Below are positions 2,843-21,837 of a stretch of 27,901 nucleotides of DNA, piece by piece (position 1 is the stretch's first letter; every line of letters starts with the position of its first letter). This DNA is from a virus. Its lineage: Duplodnaviria > Heunggongvirae > Uroviricota > Caudoviricetes. The translations under genes and the position numbers were made by a program. The notes beneath the pieces are model-generated. The model made no database searches. It had not been told where the DNA came from and worked only from the letters and a program-made list of their open reading frames with translations. Location of the stretch: IMG/VR virus record IMGVR_UViG_2684622620_000012, one strand, 5' to 3'.

Positions 2843-3166
2843 TTATTTCATCAGATTTTTCATTATTTGCGCGATTGAGTACACAAGCAAAAACTCGGCA
2901 GCCGCAAGAGTATAAAAAACATAAATTCGCTTAGCCCACCGACGATGAAAGAACTCCTCAGCATGGCCGGATGTTCGAGATACAAGCCATGCACCTACTG
3001 CACACAGAGCAGGTGCAATGAGCACAGTTATAAACCAGATTGTGATGCCCATCCCATACCTACTGATAATAGCCATTGGTATTGCAAAAATGAATGTTAG
3101 AGCAGCATTAGCTAATAGAATATCTTTTAAAGTATTTTCAATTAGTTTTTCTAGATTATCTTTCAT
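2843..3166 (-). CDS. small integral membrane protein, 107 aa
   Basis: Three hydrophobic segments (e.g. ILLANAALTFIFAIPMAII, ITIWFITVLIAPALCAVGAWLV); ATG at 3166 preceded by a G-rich SD; AT-rich. Confidence 0.6.
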   Translation of the reverse strand: MKDNLEKLIENTLKDILLANAALTFIFAIPMAIISRYGMGITIWFITVLIAPALCAVGAWLVSRTSGHAEEFFHRRWAKRIYVFYTLAAAEFLLVYSIAQIMKNLMK

Positions 3167-3196
3167 CTAATCCCCCCCGTTGAACATTAATATATA

Positions 3197-3219
3197 AAAG
3201 CCCCTTACTAAGGGGCTTT
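3197..3219. terminator. perfect hairpin AAAGCCCCTTA/TAAGGGGCTTT between lipoprotein and membrane protein genes
   Basis: 11 bp inverted repeat with A-run upstream and T-rich sequence downstream on the minus strand; sits just after the lipoprotein stop at 3231. Confidence 0.55.
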
Positions 3220-3230
3220 GCACGGATTGT

Positions 3231-4373
3231 TTAAAGGGAACTTTTTTTCGCCCCTTCAATTTCTGCCTGACAAATTTCGTCATTTGTAAATGAGTACTGC
3301 AAATAGACATATCCCTGAGTGGAATTGTTCGCTCTGGCCTCAATATATATAGTATCAATATTGTTTTTTAATGGTATTTCTTTTGTTCCCTTCCATGTGG
3401 CAGATAAGAAGCGTTCTTTTTTGTTTAGCCCCCTCATCCAGTCCTGAGGATCTTTCCAAATTGAACCAGCCAGCAAAAAGTCTGTAGTATCAGCCTTTCC
3501 ATACAGAGAACTTAAAGAATTACTCAATTCTTCAAACTTGGATTTAAGAGCCAATCCATAGCTATCAGTATCAATATTTTTTCCTAAAGCCCGTATTTGA
3601 CATAAACCAGCTTTCGGGGAGATCAACAAACCATACATTTCAAAATCTGCGTTTTGCTTCGGTAATTTATCAGAAGTATACAGATTCACACTGTCTGGTA
3701 GTGGCTTGAGCTTAGCACCGATCATATCTTCGATGTTTTTCTGTGTAAGACCGGCTTCTAAGCCAAACGGACCATCCGCTGGCGGGAGTAAAGGAAGTTG
3801 CTCTTGGGAATTTTTGGCTGTTACTTCCGTTTCAGTACTGTTTTTTGCGTCATTATCTTGTACTGATGCCAGCTTAACTTCAGCGAGGCCATACTTGGCT
3901 GTGAGGTACTTTTGCTGCAACATTGCCATGGTCTGCTCTTCAGTGGCAACAGTAGATAATTTTAGTACCTTTATCAGACCACCACTATACTGACGAGCAT
4001 CAGCTTTGGCTTCGTTGATTTTTGCATCTAAGCTGTCAATTTCAGTTTTAATTGAAGCCGCAAGCTCAGGATCAGGTTTTACTCCAGATACAACAACATC
4101 AATTTTGGCGCCTGATTCAATAGCATTAATACGCTGTTCCAAAAGCGCTTTATTAGTTCCTAATATTTCCAGTCTTGCTGTTGTCAGATTTTTTATCAAC
4201 CCACCAGAAAACTGCTGGTCAACTTCCTTAGCTGCTGATATTTCACCTTCCGTTTGCGACAGTTCAGCTTTAAGAGCCGCTACTTCCTGTTTCTGTTCTG
4301 GAGTTAACTCTTCTGGCCCACATCCGGTTAACATTACTATACCGACTAATGTTGCAATTAAAGTTTTATTCAT
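3231..4373 (-). CDS. lipoprotein with coiled-coil-like internal repeats, 380 aa
   Basis: Signal peptide plus lipobox (MNKTLIATLVGIVMLTGC); an internal ~40 aa segment is duplicated (QQFSGGLIKNLTTARLEILG... and RQYSGGLIKVLKLSTVATEE); ATG at 4373; AT-rich. Confidence 0.75.
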   Translation of the reverse strand: MNKTLIATLVGIVMLTGCGPEELTPEQKQEVAALKAELSQTEGEISAAKEVDQQFSGGLIKNLTTARLEILGTNKALLEQRINAIESGAKIDVVVSGVKPDPELAASIKTEIDSLDAKINEAKADARQYSGGLIKVLKLSTVATEEQTMAMLQQKYLTAKYGLAEVKLASVQDNDAKNSTETEVTAKNSQEQLPLLPPADGPFGLEAGLTQKNIEDMIGAKLKPLPDSVNLYTSDKLPKQNADFEMYGLLISPKAGLCQIRALGKNIDTDSYGLALKSKFEELSNSLSSLYGKADTTDFLLAGSIWKDPQDWMRGLNKKERFLSATWKGTKEIPLKNNIDTIYIEARANNSTQGYVYLQYSFTNDEICQAEIEGAKKSSL

Positions 4374-4507: not shown

Positions 4508-4795
4508 TTACTGACTACAATTGTTCTTTTTTTGGTATTTCCTGAATGCCTCACCATTGGGCTGATGTAATCCCATCCCGACATGTGCCCGGCTGATGGT
4601 TTTGCGCATCTCCCCGAAATTATCCTGCCTTGCTGGTGGGCGTGCTGCCTTGTGGATACATTCCGCGCGACGTTTTGCCGCCTGTTCCCGTGCCTTGTCA
4701 TCATTCGCCAGCATGATGACCTCAGCCCACCGAGCCGCCGCTCTCCGGTACAGACCACGCGCTTCCAGTGCTTCCGCTTTGCTGTCGTGAATCAT
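4508..4795 (-). CDS. PerC-like transcriptional regulator (tentative), 95 aa
   Basis: N-terminal SKAEALEARGLYRRAAARWAEVIM resembles the conserved N-terminus of PerC/Pch-type regulators as I recall it; start overlaps the FinO-like stop (ATGA). Confidence 0.45.
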   Translation of the reverse strand: MIHDSKAEALEARGLYRRAAARWAEVIMLANDDKAREQAAKRRAECIHKAARPPARQDNFGEMRKTISRAHVGMGLHQPNGEAFRKYQKKNNCSQ

Positions 4796-5370
4796 GCGCC
4801 TGTTTTCTCCTTTGCTGCCCGGCGCTGACGTTTGCGCTTCTCATTCAGCGCCACCAGCCGCGTTTCTGCGTCCTGTTGTTCCTGTGGTGTCACCTCGCCG
4901 CACGGCTGGCCTTTCAGGTCGTAGCGTACCCCACCAGCCATTAAGGCGCGGTAATAGCGCGGACACTGCGCATAAGATGCCAGCGTCGCACGTAATGCCC
5001 CTGGCCCGAATGCCAGCCCCCTGACGGCGAGATTCTGCATCAGGTCGTCAAATATTCCCACCTTAAGCGGCTTCGGTGCTTCCCGGTTGAATAATTCAGG
5101 CCACAACTCAGTAAGGCGGTTAACGCGCCTGCGATTTTTGCGCTGGCGTTTGGTCATATGCCGCCACGATGTCGCCCCTGTGAGCTTCTGCTGCGCTTTC
5201 TGGTTACCGAGCATCACTTTATGCGCCGATGGGGTTTTATCCTGCTCCTGTGCCGCCTGCGTCGTTTTCTGCGGCGTGCCGTAAATGCCTTTCGGTTTTC
5301 TGTTAATGGTCAGCTTAGTCATGCTTTGCCCCATCGTTTTTACTGATTGTTTCATGCCCGGTACTTTCAT
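4792..5370 (-). CDS. FinO/ProQ-domain RNA-binding protein with basic N-terminal extension, 192 aa
   Basis: C-terminal half (LTELWPELFN...PLKVGIFDDLMQNL...LRATLASYAQCPRYYRALMAGGVRYDLKGQPCGEV) aligns by eye with the ProQ N-terminal/FinO domain of E. coli ProQ. Start uncertain: no good SD at any in-frame ATG. Confidence 0.75.
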   Translation of the reverse strand: MKVPGMKQSVKTMGQSMTKLTINRKPKGIYGTPQKTTQAAQEQDKTPSAHKVMLGNQKAQQKLTGATSWRHMTKRQRKNRRRVNRLTELWPELFNREAPKPLKVGIFDDLMQNLAVRGLAFGPGALRATLASYAQCPRYYRALMAGGVRYDLKGQPCGEVTPQEQQDAETRLVALNEKRKRQRRAAKEKTGA

Positions 5371-5399
5371 CTACCATCAACGTCAAAACTACGAAACGG

Positions 5400-5674
5400 G
5401 ATGCATTCATATAGATGCGCTGAACGTATACTGCAATAATGGCTGGGTGGAAATCGACAAAAACATCGCCGAAAACGCCTAACGTGGTGTGGCAGTGGGC
5501 CGGAAAAACTGGTTGTTCGCAGGTTCCAACAGCGGTGGCGAACATACTGCGGTGCTGTACTTGCTGATCGGCACGTGCCGTCTGAACAAGGAGGAGCCAG
5601 AAAAATGGTTGCGTTACGTCATTGAGCATATCCCGGACTGGACGGCAAACCGGGTACGTGATCTGTTGTCCTAG
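5400..5674 (+). pseudogene. IS66-family transposase, C-terminal remnant with in-frame stop
   Basis: GWVEIDKNIAENA*RGVAVGRKNWLFAGSNSGGEHTAVLYLLIGTCRLN... matches the conserved IS66 TnpC C-terminus (EIDNN...GRKNWLF...); TAA at 5480-5482 interrupts the frame; only ~90 codons of a ~500 aa transposase are present. Confidence 0.65.
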
Positions 5675-5992: not shown

Positions 5993-6889
5993 TTAGATAT
6001 GCCGAATAAAGGATTGGTTATTAGAGCCTTCAATAAGCTTAACTGTAGGAGTGTTGAAAAGGGTTTGTGTACAACAGTGATGTACTGTAAGAACTGCGTC
6101 CTGAAACTGGGGATGGTCTTCAAGCTGAGTGATCCGCAAACCTAATTCAATGGCTCTCTCTGCGTGGATATGCCGAGAATGATCCTTCGTATCCGTACGA
6201 TTGTTTAAGCTTTTGACAATCGCAGTGGCGAGTTCGCTACGCCGAGGTTCAGGTAAATCTTTAAGCATTCCATTTTTTAACCATTCAGTAACCAAATCAT
6301 CGGCAAGCTGAATAGCTTTGCTAGCTGTATCAAAAATGGTAGGTGGGTAGCGCGAGATGATTGTTTGCCAAATCGGGAGGCTGGAAGGTTCTTTTTGAAT
6401 GCTATCAATAGCATTTTTTAACTCTTCCAAAATACCATAAGCTGAAAGACCACCAAAGATATGAGGATCAAAAGGTCCGATACTTGAATGATGCCCCATT
6501 ACAATTTCTTTGCAGGCACACGCAATCATTGTTCCTGCAGACATGCTCATTTGAGGAACAATGGCCCGAATATCACCATTAAAAAGCTTTTTAAGGTAGT
6601 AAACCAGAGACTCAGCCGCAGTTATAGAACCACCAGGGGTATGCAAGAAAAGGTCTAAGCCTTTCGTTCTATCCATTCCGTTAACAACAGCCATGAAACC
6701 ATTTTTGTCATCATCATTGATGCTGACATGCTGATGATTACCGTTATGTAAAAAGTCTGTGTAGTAACATATTACGTTTCTATCAGTACTGTCACTCAAA
6801 GCTTTTATGTACTTACGGCGGACAATATCAAAGCGAGAATCGTCTTGGAGGCTTTGGATTTCCTCCAAGACTTGGGCCAGATTGGGCAT
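5993..6889 (-). CDS. ClpP/crotonase-fold serine peptidase (S49/SDH-like family), 298 aa
   Basis: [20 protein letters not shown]...[23 protein letters not shown] matches the TPGG...SAGT nucleophile region of ClpP/SppA/serine-dehydrogenase-type proteases; AAGGA sits 8 nt upstream of the ATG; AT-rich. Confidence 0.65.
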
Positions 6890-6907
6890 GGGATGGTAAC
6901 GTCCTTG

Positions 6908-7132
6908 TTAAGCTTTTGTAGTGGTGCTTACATGCAAAGTTGAGTAGCCAGTTGTTCTGGTAGAACACTTAAGCTTAGTCATCTCATGTTGATGAGAAAA
7001 ACTTGCAACACCGCTTAAGCCGCCGAACTCATGGCTCATTGCGCCAAATTGTTGTGGGAACTGGATACCTGAAGTATTTGATGCCACAAGTCCCGTTTCC
7101 AAGAGAATTTTTTCGTAATTGATTTCAGCCAT
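6908..7132 (-). CDS. small hypothetical protein, 74 aa, upstream partner of the peptidase
   Basis: ATG at 7132 with GGAG 8 nt upstream; stops 18 bp before the peptidase start. S/T/G-rich with no recognised motif. Confidence 0.4.
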   Translation of the reverse strand: MAEINYEKILLETGLVASNTSGIQFPQQFGAMSHEFGGLSGVASFSHQHEMTKLKCSTRTTGYSTLHVSTTTKA

Positions 7133-8680: not shown

Positions 8681-10088
8681 GTGGGCGCACATCATCACCG
8701 TCAATAGCGATTACGCCGTCACCTTCCAGCTTGTACAGCCAGCGCCGGAAGTTTTTCATCTCATACCCCAGCTTTTTCATGTCATCGCGCAACAACGGAA
8801 TAGTACATTTATCTCCGCGTTGCGTGCGTGAACGAATACAACCCCATAGTGCGGCGTGATTCTCCGTCTTGTTCCCAGCTTCCTCGATGCGCTCCAGTTC
8901 AACCGGCGGACGGGGCTTATCCTCCAGCACCAGCGACGTGATTAACTCCCCGCCCTCATCCTTGAAAAGCTCAACCTCGCGCAAATCGCAAGCCATTTCT
9001 TTCAGTTCCTCCGCATCCTTCATCTTGGTACATGCGATAACCAGGGCTTCACTGCCTGCACCTTCACGGCGTATCCGGTATTCTGCATCCAGTGCTGCAC
9101 GAAACGCACTGGAACCGCGCGCACCCTTTGTTTCATCCTTGCCGGAATGGTGAATTACCAGCACTGTAGCGCCTGTACGTCGTTTCAGTTCGTCACATCC
9201 ATGGACAAATGCCCCCATATCCCGCGCATCATTTTCATCGCTGCCACCAAAGCAACGCGCCAGAGTATCCAGAATAATCATGCGTACAGGTTTACCCGTT
9301 TCCTGCTCAACCTGTCGGGCAGCAATAACCATTTCATCAACATCACCCGGTGCGGCCGGAAAAATTGGACGATTTACCAGGTATAGATTTTTCACCTGCT
9401 CACTGTTCACCAGTTCCCATGCCTTGATACGACGAGGAACACCGATCCCGCCCTCACCAACGACATACATCACCGCACCATGTACAACCCTGCGACCTCC
9501 CCACGGGATACCGGTAGCAACATGACACGCCCACGAACACGCAAGGAACGACTTATAAGAACCGCTCGCACCGTATGTGCTACATAGCGAATTAGCCGGA
9601 ATCACGCCCTTAACTACATAGCTAAGCTGTGAATCATATCCTTCCGATCCAATGCTCATTGGTAGCGTGGTTTTTCGCTGGCTGTATTGCTCGTCAGTAA
9701 GTATTTCCCCGCGCTCAGCCTGTTCGCGGATCCGTTGCAGGTAGTCGTGCCAGTTCTCCGGCTCCCCGTCGGTGATACCTTTGTATAATTTCGCCTCCTG
9801 TACGCCAGCCAGCGCCAGCTTTTCAGCGATAGCATTGATCTGGATTGGTTCGATCTCCCCCGCGAGATAGACACGCGCAAAGCGGCGTTCATCGTCGACA
9901 ATGCGGATATTCGCCAGGTCTGCCAGTTGCTTTGGCCCCAGGTAAACAGGTGGTACGTTATCGCCGTGTTTTCGTCCTTCGCTTTCAATCCAGTGTTGAG
10001 CATGGGCGTAAGCATCCGTCCCGGCAAAAATGATTACCTCGGTGAATTTATCCTTCGGCTGATATTTTAAATTCGGTGCGTTTTTCAC
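8676..10088 (-). CDS. RecA-like NTPase, RepA/DnaB-type replicative helicase (AAA_25-like), 470 aa
   Basis: P-loop YGASGSYKS, Walker B-like MIILDTLARCF, and VLVIHHSGKDETKGARGSSAF typical of RepA/DnaB-family helicases; GTG start with GGGAGGT 6 nt upstream, overlapping the upstream stop. Confidence 0.7.
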   Translation of the reverse strand: MKNAPNLKYQPKDKFTEVIIFAGTDAYAHAQHWIESEGRKHGDNVPPVYLGPKQLADLANIRIVDDERRFARVYLAGEIEPIQINAIAEKLALAGVQEAKLYKGITDGEPENWHDYLQRIREQAERGEILTDEQYSQRKTTLPMSIGSEGYDSQLSYVVKGVIPANSLCSTYGASGSYKSFLACSWACHVATGIPWGGRRVVHGAVMYVVGEGGIGVPRRIKAWELVNSEQVKNLYLVNRPIFPAAPGDVDEMVIAARQVEQETGKPVRMIILDTLARCFGGSDENDARDMGAFVHGCDELKRRTGATVLVIHHSGKDETKGARGSSAFRAALDAEYRIRREGAGSEALVIACTKMKDAEELKEMACDLREVELFKDEGGELITSLVLEDKPRPPVELERIEEAGNKTENHAALWGCIRSRTQRGDKCTIPLLRDDMKKLGYEMKNFRRWLYKLEGDGVIAIDGDDVRPL

Positions 10089-10375
10089 TTCTTACCTCCC
10101 GCAACCAACATTGCCCGGATTTTTTTAATATTCGTGGCTGCACGTCTCGCCACCGCCTGTTGTTTGTTTTCAACCAGAATAAAATCACGCTCAAACTGAC
10201 GGCGCGGCATTACGCAGTCATATTCGTAAGCCTCACGGCGGTAGGTGATATTGCCTGGCGTAACGTGACGAATAACCACTCGTCCCCCACGTCTGGTGTC
10301 GCGGTAAATATCTCCGTGTCTGATTTCAGGCCGAGAGAGACCGCTGGCAGTAAAGCCAGAATTTTTCTTTTTCAT
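10085..10375 (-). CDS. hypothetical basic protein, 96 aa
   Basis: Member of a chain of tightly packed minus-strand small genes; stop overlaps the helicase GTG start. Confidence 0.5.
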   Translation of the reverse strand: MKKKNSGFTASGLSRPEIRHGDIYRDTRRGGRVVIRHVTPGNITYRREAYEYDCVMPRRQFERDFILVENKQQAVARRAATNIKKIRAMLVAGGKK

Positions 10376-10806: not shown

Positions 10807-11164
10807 GTTTACCCCCCTGAATGACCTGATAACCGCAACTGGTCAGCAACTCGATAAATTCCGGCAGTGTGCCGAAACAGCAATCATCACGCAGCCGTTC
10901 GCAGGATACCTCGACGCCGTTTTCGTAGTGACTCACCATACGTCCGGTAAAATGCAGATCATCATCGTGATGACTCGTTGACGGCTTAATCAGTCGCGCA
11001 CGTTCCGCCAGTTCCAGCAATGCTTCAACGCTTCCGGCAATTGCACCATCCGGCAGGTGATAATTACGCACTATGCGCCCGTTCTCCACATTGACCAGCA
11101 ACTGCCCGGTAAATTTCTCGTCAAACTGAATGCTGTTAAGGTCAGAAATTGACAGGTTATGCAT
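10799..11164 (-). CDS. hypothetical protein, about 121 aa
   Basis: ATG at 11164 with AGGAGG upstream, 2 nt after the upstream stop; the track ORF extends to 11182 without an RBS. Confidence 0.5.
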   Translation of the reverse strand: MHNLSISDLNSIQFDEKFTGQLLVNVENGRIVRNYHLPDGAIAGSVEALLELAERARLIKPSTSHHDDDLHFTGRMVSHYENGVEVSCERLRDDCCFGTLPEFIELLTSCGYQVIQGGKHA

Positions 11165-11381
11165 AGTGCACCTCCTGCACATCAGCCATGATAATTTTTC
11201 CGGCCTTATCCAGTGCCTGATCGGCTTTTAGCTGCACAAATGCTAAATAATGGAAGATGCATTCTGATTCTCTGGCTGCGTGTTTATGCGCCACACCAGC
11301 GATAGCAGAAATCTCAATAAGTGAATCCATCAGCGTTTTGATAGTGTCTACCGCTGCATCAGGCCATGTTGCATTACACAT
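11157..11381 (-). CDS. hypothetical protein, 74 aa
   Basis: ATG at 11381 overlaps the stop of the upstream gene. Confidence 0.45.
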   Translation of the reverse strand: MCNATWPDAAVDTIKTLMDSLIEISAIAGVAHKHAARESECIFHYLAFVQLKADQALDKAGKIIMADVQEVHYA

Positions 11382-11739
11382 GCTCCACCTCCTGGCGAAT
11401 ACGGGCAGTGAATACCATCACGCAGCCATCAGGAGATTGCTGGCGTGCTTCCTGTTCGCTGGTGGCCTCGATGTGAATCACGCGCGGTTGTGCCGTACTC
11501 AGGGCGATAAAACGCCATATAAAATTGTTTTCGCATTTCTGAATAAACAGCGTGTTTTCTTCGCGCCCTTTCCATGTTGCCGAGATATAGCCCATGTCAT
11601 TGAGCATCTTGCAGGCATCAACCAGCGTATCGGCGGCTACGTGTACAGTGTTTTTACCGTCAGCCATGCAATCACGGTGCACCGCCAGGAAGGTGTATAT
11701 AAATTTAGGGTGAGTTTGAGTATGCTGTGTTCCAGCCAT
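11374..11739 (-). CDS. hypothetical protein, 121 aa, first gene of the early operon
   Basis: ATG at 11739 with GAGGT 7 nt upstream; the track ORF runs on upstream to 12831 in the same frame, but that upstream part looks non-coding or frameshifted. Confidence 0.5.
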   Translation of the reverse strand: MAGTQHTQTHPKFIYTFLAVHRDCMADGKNTVHVAADTLVDACKMLNDMGYISATWKGREENTLFIQKCENNFIWRFIALSTAQPRVIHIEATSEQEARQQSPDGCVMVFTARIRQEVEHV

Positions 11740-11813
11740 AATCGTTACCTCATTTAACGGTTTGGTTAGACGCCCTGCATGTGTTGCGAGCACTGCGGGG
11801 CGTTGCTCTTTTA

Positions 11814-11861
11814 GGTGTATTTCACCTTTGCTTTTTAATTTACTTACTGGTGAAATACACT
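11814..11861. promoter_or_regulatory. operator-like inverted repeat GGTGTATTTCACC ... GGTGAAATACAC(T) in a divergent promoter region
   Basis: 12/13 bp inverted repeat separated by 22 bp, between the early operon start (11739) and the divergent RHH gene (11927); TATACT -10-like hexamer at 11891-11896. Confidence 0.5.
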
Positions 11862-11926
11862 TCAAGCCTTTTTTTATCATTTTTTTTGCGTATACTGACA
11901 TACACCAATTTTTAGGAGATCCAGAA

Positions 11927-12106
11927 ATGGCAACTGGTGCAAAGAACGCAAAATCACAAATGACAACTGTCAGAATCCCACATGAAGTAATGGATGATAT
12001 TGAGCAACTTAAAGAACCTGGCGAAAGTACCGCTGGTTTTTTAGTTACTGCTGCAAAAGGCGAGATCAAACGCCGCCAGCGCCGCAAGGCCAAAGAACAG
12101 GAGTAA
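11927..12106 (+). CDS. small ribbon-helix-helix-like regulator, 59 aa
   Basis: AGGAGAT SD 6 nt upstream of the ATG; MTTVRIPHEVMDDIEQL fits an RHH beta-strand plus helix; divergent from the early operon; basic C-terminal tail. Confidence 0.5.
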   Translation: MATGAKNAKSQMTTVRIPHEVMDDIEQLKEPGESTAGFLVTAAKGEIKRRQRRKAKEQE

Positions 12107-12823
12107 CCATCACCAGCGCCGTGGTGTGAGGGACTACGGTGCATCGTTTTACAGGGCAGCGCCATGACCAACAAAGAATCAACCAATACACCATCACCGG
12201 CACGGAAAAGACAGCGCAGAAAGATAGCGTACGAGCATGAGTCAAACAGATTCGCGCCCTGTGCGTTTATCCTTGAGAAATTCCTTAAAGAGTACAGGCG
12301 CACAAAAATGGGATCGCATACCTGGAAAACATCGCGGCATGGCGATGTTAAAGAGCAGGAATAGCCCACCAGCAAGCCAGCATATTCACCATAATGACCC
12401 TCAGTTAAACATAGAGTCATTGGTGCAAAGCTGACACATTGCCCACCAGCCGCAAATCTGGCATTGTTGGCGATGCGTTCAAGTATGTAGCTTTCCCACT
12501 GGCGGCCCTCTGCGGTCGCCTTTGTTTTATCCAGAACGAAATCAGACATCAGATTGATCAGCACCTGGCGACCTGACAAAATCGCATCAGTCGCGCCACC
12601 AGCAAAATTTTTTGCTTTTCGGACAGTGTGATCAACGACATTTTGCAGCAAAATATTCTGCATTTCTGGCGTGCTGTAGTAACGGTGATCAGCGCCTTCA
12701 CTCTGTGCGACCACAACGCTATAATCTGCCTCGTAGACAGTAAGCAATATGGCGCAGTAGGCTATTCGTTCACAAAGGCGCTCCGGCAACGGGGCGCTTT
12801 CTCTTTTTGTAACGGTCAGAGCG

Positions 12824-13624
12824 TTACACATGGCTGTTTTCCTCCATGCGACGGGCTAACCAACGCTGCGAAAGACGAATTAATTCAGCCTTCCGCTGGT
12901 GGTAGTCCTGGCCTAACTCAATCAGCGTGATATTGCTCTGCTCAAGGTAAGAAAGGTGCTCAAGCTGCAACGTGCTCATGTGGTCGCGTGGTTCGCCTGT
13001 AATGCCGTTCGCCAGTGCCCACTGTTTTGCAGTCATGCCACCCAGCACGATACGCGCCAGCATGCTCGCTTCCGTGGTGTAGTGGTGCTGGAGTGTGTTT
13101 TTACCCAGTTCAGCCCGGTACGCCTCCAGCGCGGCACACATTGGCTTAAAGTAGCTGGCAACTGTGATACGGGCTTTCAGTTCCCGGCGTAACGCTGCGG
13201 AACGAACAGGCGCAACCTTGTGTAGCTCCTCCTCGCATTTGATAAAGTACTGGCGAACGGCGCGGCCCTGTTCGGTACGTTCGACCATCGCCAGTTCTTT
13301 CGCCATGTTCACTGTGATGATGTACTCAAGAGCGGTTTGCTGGCGAGATTTTGCGCTCACCGGATCGGGTCGGCTCAAATATTCAACAACCTCATAATCC
13401 ACGCCTTCCGTGAACCCGTATTCTTCAATGCGCCCCTTGATCCACGAACGGAAAACGCGCCCTACACCTAACGCCTTATGTAACGCTCTGGCGCTAACAA
13501 TAGTGGTTTCACTCCCGCCAATAACGCCGGAAATAATCGGGATAATTTCGCCGAAATTTTGCAGATTCTGGTTTTCAGGCCGAACGAAGCCCCGCCCCTG
13601 TACGGGCGTTTTTGGAAATTTCAT
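12824..13624 (-). CDS. phage antirepressor-like protein (AntA-type N-terminal domain), 266 aa
   Basis: TTIVSARALHKALGVGRVFRSWIKGRIEEYGFTEGVDYEV resembles the AntA/AntB antirepressor N-terminal domain; downstream of alpA on the same strand. Confidence 0.6.
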   Translation of the reverse strand: MKFPKTPVQGRGFVRPENQNLQNFGEIIPIISGVIGGSETTIVSARALHKALGVGRVFRSWIKGRIEEYGFTEGVDYEVVEYLSRPDPVSAKSRQQTALEYIITVNMAKELAMVERTEQGRAVRQYFIKCEEELHKVAPVRSAALRRELKARITVASYFKPMCAALEAYRAELGKNTLQHHYTTEASMLARIVLGGMTAKQWALANGITGEPRDHMSTLQLEHLSYLEQSNITLIELGQDYHQRKAELIRLSQRWLARRMEENSHV

Positions 13625-13701
13625 AAAAACTCCTGCTATCGAATTAAGTTACTTTTATTTGCTGGTGGATAGCTGGGGGCAATAGCCCCGTAGCCATTTA
13701 A

Positions 13702-13899
13702 TCAGGTAGCTGTTCCGCGTGATTCCGCAATACGCTGATTAATCCACTCGTCAATTTCACTCTCAACGAAAGCAATAGCTCGCGAGCCAATTTTAACTGA
13801 TGCAGGAAATTTACCTTGCCCCATAAGGCGATAAATCCATGCCTTGCTATATCCAGTTCTACGCTGAACTTCTGTTAAACGAATAAGCGTATTTGACAT
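13702..13899 (-). CDS. alpA: AlpA-family transcriptional regulator, 65 aa
   Basis: LIRLTEVQRRTGYSKAWIYRLMGQGKFPASVKIGSRAIAFVESEIDEWI is a close match to the AlpA (CP4-57 regulatory protein) HTH signature. Confidence 0.85.
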   Translation of the reverse strand: MSNTLIRLTEVQRRTGYSKAWIYRLMGQGKFPASVKIGSRAIAFVESEIDEWINQRIAESRGTAT

Positions 13900-14093
13900 A
13901 TATTTACCTCATAACGTCTACTCAATTTGACGAGGTAATCATGGCACAGAAATAACGAATATTTTCATACCCTCAGGCCTAATGGTTACCGGAAGGAAAT
14001 TAACCCTAAGGGTGATGGTAAAATTGACGGGGAAGATAAAAAAATACCCTCAGGGTAACAGTAAATCACCCTCAGGGTATGCGGTATGGTGCG

Positions 14094-16342: not shown

Positions 16343-16562
16343 AACATGCGGATTATAAGAGGTTTTTAAATACTTGAGTAGACTTGGGGAGACGTTAGAA
16401 TGGTGCCGATAATAGGAGTAAAACACTCGATTAATCTCGTGTTAATGCCATCACCTACGACCATTACTAATTGATTGAATCTTATAGAAAAAATCATCAT
16501 TTTCTATGCGTTACAATCAATTTTCACATTACAAACGCTCCGACACTTTAGCCGGGGAGTTT

Positions 16563-17840
16563 ATGAGATACAAGCCCAATCAATACATAATCTGTGATTC
16601 TTACGGTAACTACTATTTAAGGATCACGCTGCCTGTGTATATGCAGCCCTTTTTTGAAGGAAAAAGGACGTTTGTCAGAAGTCTACACACAAGTAATCTT
16701 CGTGTTGCACGTAGAAAGCGTGATCAGATTGCAGATGAATACCATTGTCTACGGGAGAGTGTCGCCCCTGTAAACAGCACAATAGAGAACACGCTGGAAC
16801 TGTTACGCAGTAAGGCTAAATACGCCAAAACAGCTACCAGAATGCAAGATACAGCGTCTTCGTGTCCGTCATTGCTTAAAATTCTTGAAATCTACCTGAC
16901 AATTAACAGCACGAAGAAGAAGCCAGCCACTTTAGCTAAAGCAAGAAAAGCGGTAGAGATGTTTCTCTCCTACCGTAAAAAGCCTGATATTGCATTGCAA
17001 GATGTGAGCCGCACCACTGTTACAGGCTGGATTGAACACATGCAAAAAACCCTTTCACAACAATCAATTGCAAATTATATCAGCCCAATGGCCCAGCTAT
17101 GGGAATTAGCTTCATCACGTTACCACGATGCGCCAGAAAGGGCGCTCTCCCCCTGGCGAGGGCATAGGCTTGATGTGGCACAAAGTAGAGAGAGCTACGA
17201 GGCATTTTCTAACAAAGAGCTATTGCAGGTGTTGCAAGTATTTTCCGGTAATTCAGCAGAAAACAAAGAAATGATGGCTTTGTGTCTTATCGGTGCTTAT
17301 ACAGGTATGCGGATCAATGAGATAGCAAGTCTCACAATAGACGATGTGAAAGAGATCGAAGGTGTGCTGTGTTTTGAAATCACACAGGGAAAAACGAAAG
17401 CTGCGGCACGTGTTGTGCCTGTACATAGCCTTATCACTCCGTTGGTGTTGTCGCTGCGTGAAAAGCCTCATAATGGCTTTTTGTTCTATCACGCCAGCAT
17501 TACAGAGCGTGTAGATGGTAAACGTTCCACGTGGCACACGCAGAGATTTACAAGAGCTAAACGAAAGGCTTTAGGGGAAAAGGGAACAGAAAGGAAGGTG
17601 TTTCATTCTCTGAGACACGGAGTAGCACAGCTTCTTGATCGAAATCAAATTCCAGAAGACAGGATCGCCCTTCTCCTGGGCCATACACGCGGTAAAACGG
17701 AGACATTCCGCACATATAGCAAGAATGCAGCTTCTCCAGTAGAGCTTAAAAAATATATTGAGCTTCTACGCTACCCTGAAATAGAGAAAGGCTTATCAAT
17801 CAATAAAAAATCAAATTTAAGGCGTAAAACAACGCCATAG
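16563..17840 (+). CDS. tyrosine recombinase/integrase (second, divergent), about 425 aa
   Basis: C-terminal catalytic signature FHSLRHGVAQLL ... LLGHTRG ... TFRTYSK (R, H-x-x-R, H, Y); ATG at 16563 preceded by GGGGAG; the track ATG at 16506 lacks an SD. AT-rich. Confidence 0.8.
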   Translation: MRYKPNQYIICDSYGNYYLRITLPVYMQPFFEGKRTFVRSLHTSNLRVARRKRDQIADEYHCLRESVAPVNSTIENTLELLRSKAKYAKTATRMQDTASSCPSLLKILEIYLTINSTKKKPATLAKARKAVEMFLSYRKKPDIALQDVSRTTVTGWIEHMQKTLSQQSIANYISPMAQLWELASSRYHDAPERALSPWRGHRLDVAQSRESYEAFSNKELLQVLQVFSGNSAENKEMMALCLIGAYTGMRINEIASLTIDDVKEIEGVLCFEITQGKTKAAARVVPVHSLITPLVLSLREKPHNGFLFYHASITERVDGKRSTWHTQRFTRAKRKALGEKGTERKVFHSLRHGVAQLLDRNQIPEDRIALLLGHTRGKTETFRTYSKNAASPVELKKYIELLRYPEIEKGLSINKKSNLRRKTTP

Positions 17841-17847
17841 ACGTAAT

Positions 17848-17880
17848 AAAGAGGCTTCAACATAGATTGGTAGCCTCTTT
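17848..17880. terminator. bidirectional hairpin AAAGAGGCT...AGCCTCTTT between convergent genes
   Basis: Perfect 9 bp inverted repeat with 15 nt loop and flanking A/T runs, in the 80 bp gap between the recombinase stop (17840) and the 17922..18635 gene stop. Confidence 0.55.
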
Positions 17881-17921
17881 TATAATTACATCGTTACAGA
17901 GCGTTTTAGAGGCGTTTACGG

Positions 17922-18635
17922 CTATTCCTGTTTAAAGGCAGGAGTAATAGTGTCTTCACCTTCACTACTTGATTTTTCAGTGTTAACACGTTTTTTCATA
18001 TTCGCCCCGATGTTCTTAGATGGCTGTGTTTTGATAGCTACAGTGTTTACAGTGCCATACGAAACGAGCCTGATCTGCTCAAAGCTAAGATCAAATACCA
18101 GGGATTCGCTTGCCTCTTCTGTGTATTCGATGCCTGTTAAAACAACGTTCTCAAAAGTTTTATTTTCTGTAACAAGAAGAAAAGGCTGTCTACTGTCCAT
18201 AATCTGATTCAGGTAGTCTATAGCTAATGATCTTCTGTTCCCGTTCACCCCTGCACTCTTTAACAAGCCAGGATCGCTTTTAATCGGTGTTTCAGTGATC
18301 CTACCTTTAAGAGAAAACTTATTGTTTTTAATTTGAACGTGATCAGACACAGTAGCACCATTTTCTACAGGATAGCTAGTAACATCTGCTTGACGTTTTA
18401 CGTTCACATCGTCTACACTGTCAAAAGCCAGTGCCATATAATTTTCATAAACGTCATTGCCAGAAGAAGCCAAGCCACTGGTAACAATAGCAAATCCGTT
18501 CTCTCCTTTTGTTGTATTAGCTTTGCTATTTTCGTTTTTTGTAGAGTTTATATCTTGTTCTGCTTTGTAAACAGCCTGAACGTGTTGTTCTGGAGTATTT
18601 GCTGCACGTATGGTTAAAATCCCGGCGGTCGCCAT
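17922..18635 (-). CDS. hypothetical protein, 237 aa (possible virion/tail-associated protein)
   Basis: Immediately downstream of the tape-measure-like gene; AAGGAAA SD; no motif recognised. Confidence 0.5.
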   Translation of the reverse strand: MATAGILTIRAANTPEQHVQAVYKAEQDINSTKNENSKANTTKGENGFAIVTSGLASSGNDVYENYMALAFDSVDDVNVKRQADVTSYPVENGATVSDHVQIKNNKFSLKGRITETPIKSDPGLLKSAGVNGNRRSLAIDYLNQIMDSRQPFLLVTENKTFENVVLTGIEYTEEASESLVFDLSFEQIRLVSYGTVNTVAIKTQPSKNIGANMKKRVNTEKSSSEGEDTITPAFKQE

Positions 18636-18669
18636 AATAATAATTTTCCTTGTAATGTTATGGCGGGAA

Positions 18670-20508
18670 TTACCCGCCGTTGGATTGTCCTGATAAGCTG
18701 GTTAATGTTAATGATTTCAAGAAGCTATCCCGACTTGCTCTTGCTGTAAAATCCACATAATCGCTTAATCTTGATGTGTCAGAATTAATAGTAAGAGGAA
18801 CCTCTGTTACCACTTCAAATGTAGGATTCAGATTAAACACAGGAGATAAATTATAAGCCGGAGTTGTCATTGCAAGATTATTTAAAGCACCCTGTTTGAG
18901 ATTGGTTATCGGTGCTTCATTGACTGACATTTTTACATCTGACACAGAAGATTTATCATCGAAAAGCAATCCCTTAATCGTGTTAAAGAGAGAATGACTA
19001 TTATCAGGTGTAGTTGTTGCAGTGCCAGCGCCTTTATATTGGTCAGGAACGAGATTAGAAAGATTCTGTTTCATTCCTTCATTGCTTAATGGCGGTGCAT
19101 CACCTAAATTTTTCTGAATAGCCTCTGTCTTATCATCATTACGATTAAACCAGTTTACAATCTTCATAATAGCTTCAAAGAGACTTCCTGTAGCTTCTCC
19201 CAGCTTCGTAAAATACGGAGTGAGATTAGAAAGGTTTTTCATAAACTCTTCCGTTACTTTTGGATCAAGAGATTTCATAAAGCCGTCTACGAATGCTACT
19301 TGTCTTGCATCAGAAAGCTGTGAAAGCTGTCTGTTTAGTTCTCTGAATTTAACGATAGATTCTTGCTGTGTTTCTGTTAGCCATTTTCCAGAGGCTTTTT
19401 GCTGGTTAATACTTTCTTGTACATCTTTAACGGAACGTTGCCAATATTTTGACGTAAGCATCAAATCATCGCCCAGGTCTTCTAAACGTTGTCCAATTTG
19501 AGAATCTGAAAACCCTTTTTTCATCATTCCATTAACAGCCTTAGAAATTAATCCAGCCGGATTATCAGCAAATTTTTTAAGGTCGCTTTTGTTAATAACA
19601 CCGATGTTTAGAAGTTCATTAATAGCGTTATCACCGCCTTTCCATTCAGATTTTCCGGTTTTCTTGTCTTTCACCAATTCAGCTTCACTGTAGGATTTTG
19701 CGGCACGTTCCCTAACATCTTTCATCTGATCCAGGTATTTTCTAGCCCCTTGATCACCCATCATAGAGTCAACGCCGTTTTTATACGCCCATTCTGTAAT
19801 ATTATACATCTGGTTAACGTCTACACCGCCAAGCCTTGCACGTTGGATCAATTCCCCTTGTGTCTCAGCATTGGCAAAACTATTAGCAACGAATTCGTTT
19901 GCTTTACTCATAGCCATCACGCCAGCAGCCGCTGTAGCGCCTCCAAATAACAGAGCGCCCATAGTGGCGGCATTCCCTGATCCTCCCTTAACAGGTGCAT
20001 AGGCTTTAGCGTGAGCGTTACGATTGCCATTAATCTTACGTTGTTGTTGTTGTAAGCGTTTCATCTGGCTATTCATACGTGCAAGCGAGATAGCCCCTTG
20101 CTCATATTGTTTTGCTATCTCTCTAGCCTGTGCAATAGCTTTATATTGTTCCGCTACAGAGAGGCGGTGCATTGCACTAATGCTTGATCCAACGTCTAAC
20201 AGTTTTAAGGCTGCCTTCTCACTGCGTGCTGCTATTTGTGCCTGTTGCCTTGCCTGTGCTCTTGCTGCGGCAGCTTGTGCTCTTTGATTCTGTTTTTCGG
20301 TTTTAGCTTTCTGTTGAGCAATCTTGTCTACTTCGTTTTGTGCTTTCTTATAGCCTTTAGTGACATTATCAAACCTTAATTTAGCTGGCTTGATATTTTC
20401 TGCGAATTCCTTTAAGCCTGTAATAGAGTCTTTCGCTTTTTTCAAGCTGTCTTTATCTACACTAAATGTAACTGTGTTCTTAATTTTAGAAGTGTTAATT
20501 TCTAACAT
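18670..20508 (-). CDS. tape-measure-like protein, 612 aa (long coiled coils plus Gly/Ala-rich hydrophobic segment)
   Basis: N-terminal Q/A/K/R-rich coiled-coil region and GALLFGGATAAAGVMAMS segment resemble phage tail tape-measure proteins; AAGGGGA SD; assignment is by composition only. Confidence 0.45.
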   Translation of the reverse strand: MLEINTSKIKNTVTFSVDKDSLKKAKDSITGLKEFAENIKPAKLRFDNVTKGYKKAQNEVDKIAQQKAKTEKQNQRAQAAAARAQARQQAQIAARSEKAALKLLDVGSSISAMHRLSVAEQYKAIAQAREIAKQYEQGAISLARMNSQMKRLQQQQRKINGNRNAHAKAYAPVKGGSGNAATMGALLFGGATAAAGVMAMSKANEFVANSFANAETQGELIQRARLGGVDVNQMYNITEWAYKNGVDSMMGDQGARKYLDQMKDVRERAAKSYSEAELVKDKKTGKSEWKGGDNAINELLNIGVINKSDLKKFADNPAGLISKAVNGMMKKGFSDSQIGQRLEDLGDDLMLTSKYWQRSVKDVQESINQQKASGKWLTETQQESIVKFRELNRQLSQLSDARQVAFVDGFMKSLDPKVTEEFMKNLSNLTPYFTKLGEATGSLFEAIMKIVNWFNRNDDKTEAIQKNLGDAPPLSNEGMKQNLSNLVPDQYKGAGTATTTPDNSHSLFNTIKGLLFDDKSSVSDVKMSVNEAPITNLKQGALNNLAMTTPAYNLSPVFNLNPTFEVVTEVPLTINSDTSRLSDYVDFTARASRDSFLKSLTLTSLSGQSNGG

Positions 20509-20519
20509 TTAAAATCCCC

Positions 20520-20723
20520 TTAATCATTTTTACCACCTTCTTTACTTAAGAAATGGTGTAGAGCCTGATCAATACTCTCGTTTAATCTGAACATACGGGC
20601 TTTTACTCCTTCATATGGAACATCTAGGAGAGAACAGAGATATTTCAGATTTAACAAGCCTCTAGAATCATTAGCATCTAAATGTACGTGTACACCATTT
20701 TTTGATTTCAAAATCACTTCCAT
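20520..20723 (-). CDS. hypothetical small protein, 67 aa
   Basis: Strong SD GAGGTGA upstream of the ATG; 11 bp before the tape-measure-like gene. Confidence 0.5.
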   Translation of the reverse strand: MEVILKSKNGVHVHLDANDSRGLLNLKYLCSLLDVPYEGVKARMFRLNESIDQALHHFLSKEGGKND

Positions 20724-20753
20724 ATTTTAATCACCTCTCAAAATTTAAAAAAA

Positions 20754-20779
20754 TAAAAAAAAAGGCGAAGCGTGAATAC
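20754..20779 (-). terminator. hairpin followed by a T9 run (minus-strand sense) after the 342 aa gene
   Basis: GCGTG-AATA-CACGC core stem within GGCGAAGCGTG...CGCCACGCC; on the minus strand it is followed by TTTTTTTTTATTTTTTT. Confidence 0.4.
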
Positions 20780-20808
20780 ACGCCACGCCTCTAATACACG
20801 TTAAAATA

Positions 20809-21837
20809 TTATTTAACTGTGATCTGCACAGAGAAGCCAACACCGTGGTTTACCACCATCTGGCTATTCTCTGTAACAACGTTAACAGCATCACCACGAG
20901 AAGATTCATAGCTATAGCTGTACACCTCAGCAGGAGCGGCATTAATCAGTTCAAAGGTGCTGGAAGCCGCCCCATAGATGGCCTGGTAGACGTTAGAGCA
21001 TTTAGCGAATTTAGGCACGGCTACAGCGTCAGCGGTCATATGTGCAAGGTGTAGCGGATCTACCAGTTTAACAACATCAATGTTAGTTCCTGGAATAGTG
21101 AACGCTGTCACCCCTGGCAGCAGGTCACGACGCTGATACACAACGTTCCCTTCTTCCAGTGGGCTTACATACTGGAATGCGTTTGCCATACCCGCAGAGA
21201 ATCGAATTGCAGAGAAGGCTTCCGGCTTACAGAAAACAACAATACGCTCTACAGCAGCCGCCTGGCTTTGTGCTTTCTCGATAATGTCAGTAGCAATCTG
21301 ATCAAATTCTTTAAAAATCTTCGTGGTGTCAGTGCTGGAGGCGTTAACAGTGGCTTTCATAGGTGTCACATTAAACAGCTTGCCCCACTCGATAAGAACA
21401 TCATCAGTTTTCGGGGTGTAGGTGCGACCACTAAACAGAGAAGCAGCCAATACGCTCTCTTTTGTACGCTGATACGCTACGTGGTGTTTAGCAACATAGT
21501 CAGCATAGATATCAGTGAGTGTTTCCTGAAAATCAGTGCCAGGCTTACGCTTGCCTTGCACGTCCTGCGGTTTGATCAGGTCTTGCCTTAAAAAGTACGG
21601 AATTTCAATAAGATATTCTTTACCTTGTTCTCGCTTAGTAACGTTGTGTTCAGAAGAGAAACGAGAGGTTTCTTTGTTGAACAGAGATTCGTTGCTTTCG
21701 ACAAGCTGGGAAACAGCTACTTTATGAGATGTAACCCCTACAGAATCCGTAAAATCAAGAGTAGAGAGCAGATAGTTTCTAGTGCTATGAGCCTGGAAAA
21801 GCGGAGCTAAATCAACGTAATCATTACCTAGAATCAT
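20809..21837 (-). CDS. phage structural-like protein, 342 aa (major capsid or major tail candidate)
   Basis: Size and position (after two small genes, before a terminator and the tape-measure-like gene) fit a major structural protein; no diagnostic motif recognised, so capsid versus tail is unresolved. Confidence 0.4.
   Translation of the reverse strand: MILGNDYVDLAPLFQAHSTRNYLLSTLDFTDSVGVTSHKVAVSQLVESNESLFNKETSRFSSEHNVTKREQGKEYLIEIPYFLRQDLIKPQDVQGKRKPGTDFQETLTDIYADYVAKHHVAYQRTKESVLAASLFSGRTYTPKTDDVLIEWGKLFNVTPMKATVNASSTDTTKIFKEFDQIATDIIEKAQSQAAAVERIVVFCKPEAFSAIRFSAGMANAFQYVSPLEEGNVVYQRRDLLPGVTAFTIPGTNIDVVKLVDPLHLAHMTADAVAVPKFAKCSNVYQAIYGAASSTFELINAAPAEVYSYSYESSRGDAVNVVTENSQMVVNHGVGFSVQITVK

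Follow-up and report, generated by a model that had tools for sequence, protein, structure and literature searches.

Cor of phages phi80 and N15 and Llp of phage T5 are exclusion lipoproteins with a predicted outer-membrane location, the genes of which lie in or beside the tail modules, and Sp of phage T4 is a small helical lysozyme inhibitor. In phage HK97, gene 15, the first gene to be named a moron, is located between the tail assembly chaperone gene and that for the tape measure, and its product, gp15, an exclusion protein of the inner membrane, prevents DNA entry in a manner that depends on the tail region of the incoming phage (PMC3594210). The hallmarks of a moron are low G+C content, a terminator of its own and patchy presence (PMC3594210). 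Here we describe two adjacent genes at positions 2843 to 4373 of a viral DNA of 27,901 nucleotides (Caudoviricetes, IMG/VR record IMGVR_UViG_2684622620_000012; the whole stretch is hereafter referred to as the window), one for a 380-residue lipoprotein and the other for a 107-residue small membrane protein. Envelope morons on prophages and satellites are already familiar, and the two proteins described here are new and unnamed. By comparison with the systems above, a role of the pair in exclusion of incoming phage is tentatively proposed.

Results

The lipoprotein gene and its product

Both open reading frames (ORFs) of the original prediction were found exactly at the positions given there, on the minus strand, on which all segments of the two genes described below also lie. 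The lipoprotein gene (3231-4373), taken from the ORF list, encodes 380 residues and belongs to an uncharacterised two-domain family. The N-terminus, MNKTLIATLVGIVMLTG followed by Cys18, satisfied a PROSITE-type lipobox rule, for which a positive n-region, a hydrophobic core and the pattern [LVI][ASTVI][GAS]C within the first ~35 residues were required. The signal peptide with its lipobox (L-T-G-C) occupies residues 1-18 (4320-4373) and is followed by Gly at position +2. The same pattern was passed by 20 of 20 homologues, and G17-C18-G19-P20 was invariant in their alignment (59-89% identity); the predicted signal peptide is thus sound and the lipobox canonical. In Escherichia coli, Gly at +2 leads to outer-membrane sorting, and on this rule the protein is predicted to reach the outer membrane and to be held at its inner face.

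The internal duplication of the N-terminal domain proved to be real. Upon self-alignment, residues 21-98 and 99-175 scored 76, well over the scores of shuffled sequences (27.6 ± 5.0, maximum 48, n=500), and a [FY]SGGLIK turn is common to both copies. In the AlphaFold2 model, repeat 1 (residues 22-98, 4080-4310, turn FSGGLIK) and repeat 2 (residues 99-165, 3879-4079, turn YSGGLIK) each form a helical hairpin, with helices at residues 25-53 and 59-87 in the former and 102-126 and 133-161 in the latter. The linker that follows (residues 166-196, 3786-3878, with LLPP at its end) is the most variable part of the family alignment, and the predicted local distance difference test score (pLDDT) falls below 50 in the region of residues 163-209. 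The C-terminal alpha/beta head (residues 197-380, 3234-3785), when modelled separately, gave pLDDT 83 and a predicted template modelling score (pTM) of 0.80. It begins at an invariant GPFGL motif, and Cys258 and Cys368, both invariant among the 20 aligned homologues, are presumed to form a periplasmic disulfide. With a lipobox, a two-hairpin stalk, a flexible linker and a globular head, the product is, as judged from pattern and structure prediction, a lipid-anchored periplasmic protein.

The G+C content is 40.0% for the lipoprotein gene and 38.3% for the small gene, and that of the adjoining perC/proQ block is 52-57%. Both genes are AT-rich as originally noted; the uniform backbone of about 50% G+C with which they had been compared does not exist, the window being a mosaic of 42.7% G+C overall. 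Between copies from different genera, the ratio of nonsynonymous to synonymous substitution rates (dN/dS) was 0.05-0.07 for the lipoprotein gene, and that for the small gene was 0.12-0.20; in view of these low values both ORFs are genuine genes under constraint.

The intergenic hairpin

By the terminator scan, a hairpin with a T-rich tail, resembling an intrinsic terminator, was identified between the two genes (3187-3219). The hairpin itself, AAAGCCCCTTA-g-TAAGGGGCTTT, is located at 3197-3219 and is followed by TTATATATT. Its presence agrees with the original prediction; as to its size, it had been described as a perfect hairpin of 11 bp and was scored here as terminator-like with 10 pairs and a 3-nt loop. 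The scan alone was not beyond chance, with six sites detected against 3.5 ± 1.9 expected. The stem is, however, kept in Klebsiella and Yokenella, and a GC-rich hairpin plus T-run lies within about 70 nt after the lipoprotein stop codon in at least 16 of the 23 loci checked. Since these hairpins recur although they are non-homologous from lineage to lineage, the terminator goes with the lipoprotein gene as one unit.

No sigma-70 consensus site with at least 9 of 12 matches was detected in the 134-nt spacer upstream of the lipoprotein gene. One orphan copy of the gene, situated amid housekeeping genes (locus L040), has a long upstream gap, which would imply a promoter. Parts of the island that carries the pair were matched by 2136 E. 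coli genomes, and only 113 of 5426 have the two genes. Taking together the deviant G+C content, the terminator of its own, the patchy presence and the location in known moron slots (see below), the lipoprotein gene behaves like a self-contained, AT-rich add-on of the moron type.

The small membrane protein and its association with the lipoprotein gene

The gene for the 107-residue protein (2843-3166), recognised as an ORF and by hydrophobicity, carries a conserved APALCAVGAW motif, and a G-rich ribosome-binding stretch, GGGGGGGATTAG, was read from the sequence before its ATG (3167-3178). Three membrane helices had been expected. Two strong hydrophobic segments were identified at residues ~16-35 and ~38-62, and a third, at ~81-101, is weaker, so that two to three transmembrane helices are predicted; a positively charged loop joins segments two and three. 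Given the lipobox in one product and the hydrophobic segments in the other, both are predicted to be targeted to the envelope, as originally suggested.

Every locus of the 107-residue gene examined lies 25-70 nt behind a gene for a 380-residue lipoprotein. These pairs are found in E. coli, E. ruysiae, Klebsiella (68% identity), Citrobacter (73%), Yokenella (47%) and metagenomic islands, and they span at least four island backbones with differing downstream genes. The reverse does not hold: the lipoprotein family comprises 320 homologue clusters, all annotated as hypothetical, against 17 clusters for the small protein, and the 107-residue gene is missing from at least 14 species-level loci with a lipoprotein gene. 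In Pantoea and Tatumella the lipoprotein gene is directly followed by a homologue of the 55-residue ORF of the window (see below), an order from which the 107-residue gene resembles a later insertion. Obligate pairing of the two genes is thereby refuted and the dependence is one-way, that of the small protein on the lipoprotein. The word cassette, used for the pair in the original prediction, overstates their association, as a terminator stands between the genes and most lipoprotein lineages are without the small gene. The latter is an optional add-on seen only directly behind this lipoprotein gene, and since the hairpin is kept between the two, it may be expressed at a low level by read-through.

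Other small membrane proteins are encoded near the lipoprotein gene in other lineages. In prophages, a 273-residue membrane protein with two transmembrane segments (2TM) and a Zn ribbon is encoded beside it, and in a satellite clade at 64% identity, a 106-residue protein that has a Zn ribbon and is a true member of PF14373 Imm_superinfect (E 3.8e-16) is encoded ~0.7 kb from it. Small membrane neighbours of the lipoprotein recur, then, from three unrelated families. The 107-residue protein was rejected as a divergent Imm_superinfect protein, since hhalign against a true member gave 0.1% probability and there was no Pfam match, and, when tested against the 2TM protein with Zn ribbon of prophages, it was not homologous. 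A spanin, either of the Rz/Rz1 type or unimolecular, was also rejected, because it is the lipoprotein that holds the coiled-coil-like part, the small protein being almost without a periplasmic domain, and because the ORFs scanned or annotated nearby gave no match to a lysis family. Separately, an unrelated 118-residue lipoprotein of no family is encoded 44 nt upstream of the lipoprotein gene in Erwinia and Pantoea (L006, 7601-7957; L023, 9601-9957).

Orthologues in prophage tail modules

The lipoprotein gene was also identified within the tail modules of lambda-like prophages. At three loci of one prophage group (L093, L101 and L104), the tail tube and tail assembly chaperone genes are followed by that for a divergent S24 repressor, by two Bro-N genes, and then by the genes for the lipoprotein, the 2TM protein with Zn ribbon and the tape measure (TMP_2). 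At L091 and its relatives the lipoprotein gene ends 65 nt upstream of the TMP_3 tape-measure gene, and in Xenorhabdus (L041) it stands between the tape measure and gpM. The positional parallel with HK97 gene 15 is exact but circumstantial, since insertions at this junction may simply be tolerated. As a separate observation, the LexA-like S24 repressor and the two Bro-N genes that precede the lipoprotein gene at L093 (5425-7869) make up a small regulatory unit between the chaperone and tape-measure genes, which hints at SOS-linked control.

Modular domains of the lipoprotein family

A profile search of 1.84 billion representatives gave 2833 clusters (clustered at 50% identity) at E <= 1e-3. Stand-alone heads are secreted proteins of ~200 residues, in which GPFGL comes right after the signal-peptide cleavage site. 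The stalk is fused elsewhere to a VasI domain, to a peptidoglycan-binding protein and to at least three unnamed beta-rich domains; in some relatives a cytoplasmic domain and a transmembrane helix take the place of the lipid anchor, and in Azospirillum the stalk and the head are encoded by two adjacent genes. Since the head occurs anchored to either membrane or free, a periplasmic target seems likelier than an outer-membrane receptor. Distant relatives are located next to BREX and in a cas operon; on Deinococcus geothermalis plasmid pDGEO01 (L049, 5944-6528), a secreted stand-alone GPFGL head homologue is encoded inside a type I-E CRISPR-Cas operon, between cas6e and cas1e.

The best fold matches of the head are alpha+beta proteins of the Mog1/PsbP/DcrB type (DcrB, PA1624, LpqN, Eag chaperones and several immunity proteins of type VI secretion systems, T6SS), and many of these are periplasmic lipoproteins or binding proteins. 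No Sp-like lysozyme inhibitor was among the head fold matches listed. The only viral structural match was an unnamed 'lipoprotein' of Erwinia phage Midgardsormr38, and a sequence search of the PDB yielded designed coiled coils only and no match to either protein. Family searches revealed no homology to a housekeeping lipoprotein, and with the signal peptide upheld as well, neither of the observations originally named as refuting the prediction was made. Weak NCBIfam matches to LpoB, SA0632 and Lpp concerned the signal peptide or coiled coil only, far under the cut-offs, and the sole Pfam match of the 107-residue protein at E <= 0.1 was a chance one to DUF554. Surface modification, the second function originally suggested, is unsupported and was rejected because no enzyme domain of any kind was found.

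The satellite island carrying the pair

The region has matches of 99-100% identity in 113 of the 5426 complete E. coli genomes, all of them chromosomal, and O104:H4, 55989, UTAK-5 and APEC20/16 are among the carriers. In annotated matching genomes the island is ~19 kb long, lies beside tRNA-Thr (thrW) between proA and the yagU/pao region, and holds no structural genes. No tRNA gene was detected within the window by ARAGORN, although the E. coli copies adjoin tRNA-Thr. The island encodes an integrase, an HTH (helix-turn-helix) regulator, an AntA/AntB antirepressor, an Icd-like protein, DUF4222 and a RepA-family helicase, and continues with an SDH-type Clp-fold protease, ProQ/FinO, PerC, the lipoprotein and 107-residue genes, small ORFs and, at the far end, a GapS1 defence gene. 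From this gene content, a size within the ~10-20 kb of such elements and the insertion at thrW in matching E. coli genomes, the island is classified as a satellite resembling the phage-inducible chromosomal islands (PICIs), with the pair in its accessory part, which bears out the mobile-island context assumed at the outset. For EcCIMP1, which has been described between proA and yagU, the PICI nature has been proven by experiment (PMC11773190). Searches of the literature on PICI cargo gave no mention of the lipoprotein.

Upstream of the pair, the window carries a ProQ/FinO-family gene (4792-5370, Pfam E 1.3e-23) and a PerC-family gene (4508-4795, Pfam E 9.1e-32), both on the minus strand, and this order recurs in 17 satellite loci. 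Downstream, a block on the same strand (522-2564) accompanies the pair in E. coli-type satellites and consists of ORFs of 55 residues (2397-2564), 90 residues (2128-2400), 181 residues (1500-2045) and 194 residues (522-1106), all on the minus strand. The 181-residue product, with HTH_17 of the excisionase/TerS type and a match to small terminase phrog_57 (E 6e-7), may redirect packaging for the satellite in the manner of Rpp. The 194-residue ORF has a C-terminal hydrophobic helix, 33% G+C and no family match. Its homologue lies directly upstream of the Klebsiella lipoprotein gene (L008, 6904-7479) and may travel with the pair.

In Enterobacterales, satellites with the lipoprotein use three replication modules: a RepA helicase, a D5_N/Pox_D5 primase, and a Zn-ribbon/Toprim/DUF927 primase. 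The lipoprotein is also found in degraded islands at the same chromosomal site, the proBA locus (Klebsiella and Pseudenterobacter), and in 52 IMG/VR viral contigs. The defence genes at the island ends are GapS1 and SEFIR/TIR.

Several further features of the window and of related satellites were recorded. The SDH-family Clp-fold serine protease (PF01972, E 9e-19; 5993-7132, minus strand) is preceded by a 74-residue ORF; the two resemble a PICI-borne 'HP + SDH' candidate defence pair, and PADLOC gave no match. A remnant of an IS66-family transposase is located between proQ and the SDH protease (5315-5674), where UTAK-5 has an added insertion sequence, IS1. An open frame of 485 residues (11374-12831, minus strand), without Pfam or PADLOC match, runs over the RefSeq 121-residue Icd-like gene and two small plus-strand genes, and may be an over-extended ORF call. 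Directly past the island integrase, a second, divergent integrase of the DUF6538 type is followed by a Dit-like tail protein, a 612-residue ORF and a major-capsid-E-like gene in DNA of 35-40% G+C; this region (16506-21837) looks like a second element in tandem. Sister-clade satellites (L073-L084, L088) carry primase, Ash and AntA, together with a full-length tape-measure gene (934 residues, TMP_3 E 2.6e-51; 11161-13965 at L073), no other tail genes being seen. A PF14373 Imm_superinfect protein with Zn ribbon (9811-10131 at L073) and another small lipoprotein are also encoded by them. Satellites do not usually have a tape measure, and its presence here could point to hijacking of tail length or ejection.

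Discussion

A possible role in phage exclusion

Envelope-level exclusion of incoming phage at the step of genome delivery is our best guess for the function of the pair, to which we assign a probability of roughly 0.35. It is, by analogy, the best-supported guess in view of carriage on phages and satellites, the tail-module and tape-measure neighbourhood, the Imm-type neighbour, the GapS1 and SEFIR/TIR cargo, and the scattered relatives in a cas operon and beside BREX. The superinfection exclusion originally suggested has thus been made more plausible by the orthologues in tail modules and by Imm_superinfect proteins nearby on related satellites, but neither protein matches a known exclusion or defence family. 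The lipoprotein would be anchored at the inner face of the outer membrane, with its head extending into the periplasm, and the head would bind, non-enzymatically, a conserved component that crosses the periplasm. As target, one may consider the apparatus with which an incoming siphophage ejects its DNA or its tape measure, or else a host factor needed by that apparatus; strong purifying selection fits a conserved target. The small protein is assumed to be located in the inner membrane and, through read-through past the terminator, to be less abundant; there it would strengthen the block. The outcome would be superinfection exclusion protecting the host of the satellite, analogous but not homologous to that by HK97 gp15 or T4 Imm/Sp.

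A number of observations weigh against exclusion. Searches of Pfam, NCBIfam, PHROGs and PADLOC gave no significant match for either protein (E <= 0.1 for Pfam and PADLOC-DB 2.0), and PADLOC-DB 2.0 returned zero families, that is, no known defence family. In 50,697 sequenced phage genomes there was neither a DNA match nor a tblastn match to either protein. The fold matches of the head are weak and generic, and the domains of the lipoprotein are widespread and occur also in non-mobile chromosomal contexts and with other anchors or partner domains, so that the basic role of the head and stalk family may be general periplasmic biology. The association with defence genes is anecdotal rather than a statistical enrichment. 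In APEC20/16 (L054, 9230-10373), the island of which is otherwise ~100% identical, the annotation gives the lipoprotein gene as a pseudogene with a frameshift; the window copy is intact.

A broader proposal, which we hold to be improbable, is that the lipoprotein founds an unrecognised class of periplasmic anti-phage proteins that block siphophage genome delivery, for instance through contact with the tape-measure or ejection complex, with interchangeable small inner-membrane partners. Such partners would be the 107-residue protein, the Imm-like proteins and the 2TM proteins with Zn ribbon. If this were true, the family of GPFGL heads (more than 2,800 clusters) would represent a widespread layer of envelope immunity spread by satellites and prophages.

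Alternative functions

Among the alternatives, a host-adaptive envelope factor of the lysogenic-conversion type, such as lambda Bor or plasmid TraT, contributing to serum resistance, envelope stability, adhesion or stress tolerance and not acting directly on phage, is conceivable but doubtful. The adjoining PerC-family regulator belongs to a class linked to virulence regulation in PICIs (PMC11773190). Pathogenic lineages (O104:H4, 55989 and avian pathogenic E. coli, APEC) are among the carriers, the stalk of a relative is joined to a peptidoglycan-binding domain, and the lipoprotein domains are common outside mobile DNA. However, Pfam and NCBIfam revealed no similarity to Bor/Iss, TraT, Lom or named virulence lipoproteins, and the location in tail modules is left unexplained; the gene is carried by genera that live with plants or insects or in the environment (among them Erwinia, Pantoea, Xenorhabdus and Rouxiella), which argues against a host-specific virulence role.

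It is unlikely that the lipoprotein is an orphan periplasmic immunity protein, the head of which neutralises a toxin from competitors (a T6SS/Rhs effector or a colicin-type bacteriocin) while the satellite spreads the protection. The fusion of the stalk to the T6SS-associated VasI domain points in this direction, as does one plasmid orthologue, ~6 kb upstream of which lies an Abi-family gene and ~3 kb downstream of which a colicin-like tRNase and its immunity protein are encoded, and strong conservation is compatible with a conserved toxin. Nevertheless, more than 70 loci were examined and none has an adjacent toxin gene, and toxin immunity explains neither the adjacency to tape-measure genes nor the placement on satellites.

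With about as little probability, and in overlap with the other alternatives, the two genes might be functionally unrelated neighbours, the lipoprotein acting alone and the 107-residue gene being a separate small moron. The terminator between them, the disparity of 320 against 17 clusters and the insertion-like order in Pantoea and Tatumella all agree with this. It is, however, difficult to reconcile with the constant location of the small gene 25-70 nt behind the lipoprotein gene on at least four backbones and down to 47% identity, with the conservation of the intergenic hairpin along with the small gene, and with the different small membrane proteins that adjoin the lipoprotein gene in other lineages.

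Service in the lytic cycle of the satellite or phage itself, for example as a late-acting protein which, like T5 Llp, keeps released particles from being lost on the debris of lysed cells, or by interference with helper tail or lysis, is very unlikely: the gene comes just after the primase and an origin-like repeat region of the main operon in E. hormaechei-type satellites, prophage copies are embedded in the late tail operon and related satellites have a tape-measure gene of their own, but the terminator and AT-rich composition favour independent expression of the moron type, no lysis family was matched by the ORFs near the pair that were scanned or annotated, and the life cycle does not require the gene, which many similar satellites lack and which has a frameshift in one strain.

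If the pair does exclude phages, the few envelope-level exclusion systems would be joined by one of new protein architecture, and this would mean that satellites spread envelope exclusion alongside cytoplasmic defences; if it is ordinary conversion cargo, a hypothetical gene pair will still have had its context explained. In either case the double-hairpin stalk and the GPFGL head, two large periplasmic domains for which Pfam has no model and which comprise 2,833 clusters between them, are described for the first time. On present evidence the pair is a reasonable candidate for a plating screen rather than a surprising discovery.

Comparison with known systems

The Gram-negative PICIs EcCICFT073, EcCIEDL933 and EcCIMP1 have in common an integrase, an antirepressor, an Icd-like protein, a replication helicase/primase and a PerC-family regulator, and their far end holds accessory and defence cargo that varies, as in the island described here. 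EcCIMP1 occupies the same site, between proA/thrW and yagU, as the island does in the matching E. coli genomes.

As for the pair itself, Cor and Llp (the comparison with Cor also draws on PMC3594210) are, like the lipoprotein here, encoded by mobile elements, and the lipoprotein shares with them a predicted outer-membrane location. They are ~60-80 residues long and block FhuA, whereas the lipoprotein here is five times larger, modular and not homologous. Membership in the Cor/Llp family was rejected, as there was no PHROG or Pfam match and no tblastn match in the 50,697 phage genomes, and its transmembrane-anchored or unanchored relatives suggest a periplasmic target rather than an outer-membrane receptor, unlike Cor and Llp. 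The logic of T4 Imm and Sp, a periplasmic factor together with a small inner-membrane factor, is like that proposed for the pair; the 107-residue protein is no homologue of Imm, though related satellites encode a true PF14373 protein. HK97 gp15 is likewise the product of an add-on unit with deviating G+C content and its own terminator, and is likewise located in the envelope. It is, however, a small inner-membrane protein of the YebO family, in contrast to the 380-residue two-domain lipoprotein described here, and the two have no sequence relationship. The architecture of the pair is thus different from those of Cor, Llp, gp15, Imm/Sp and SieA.

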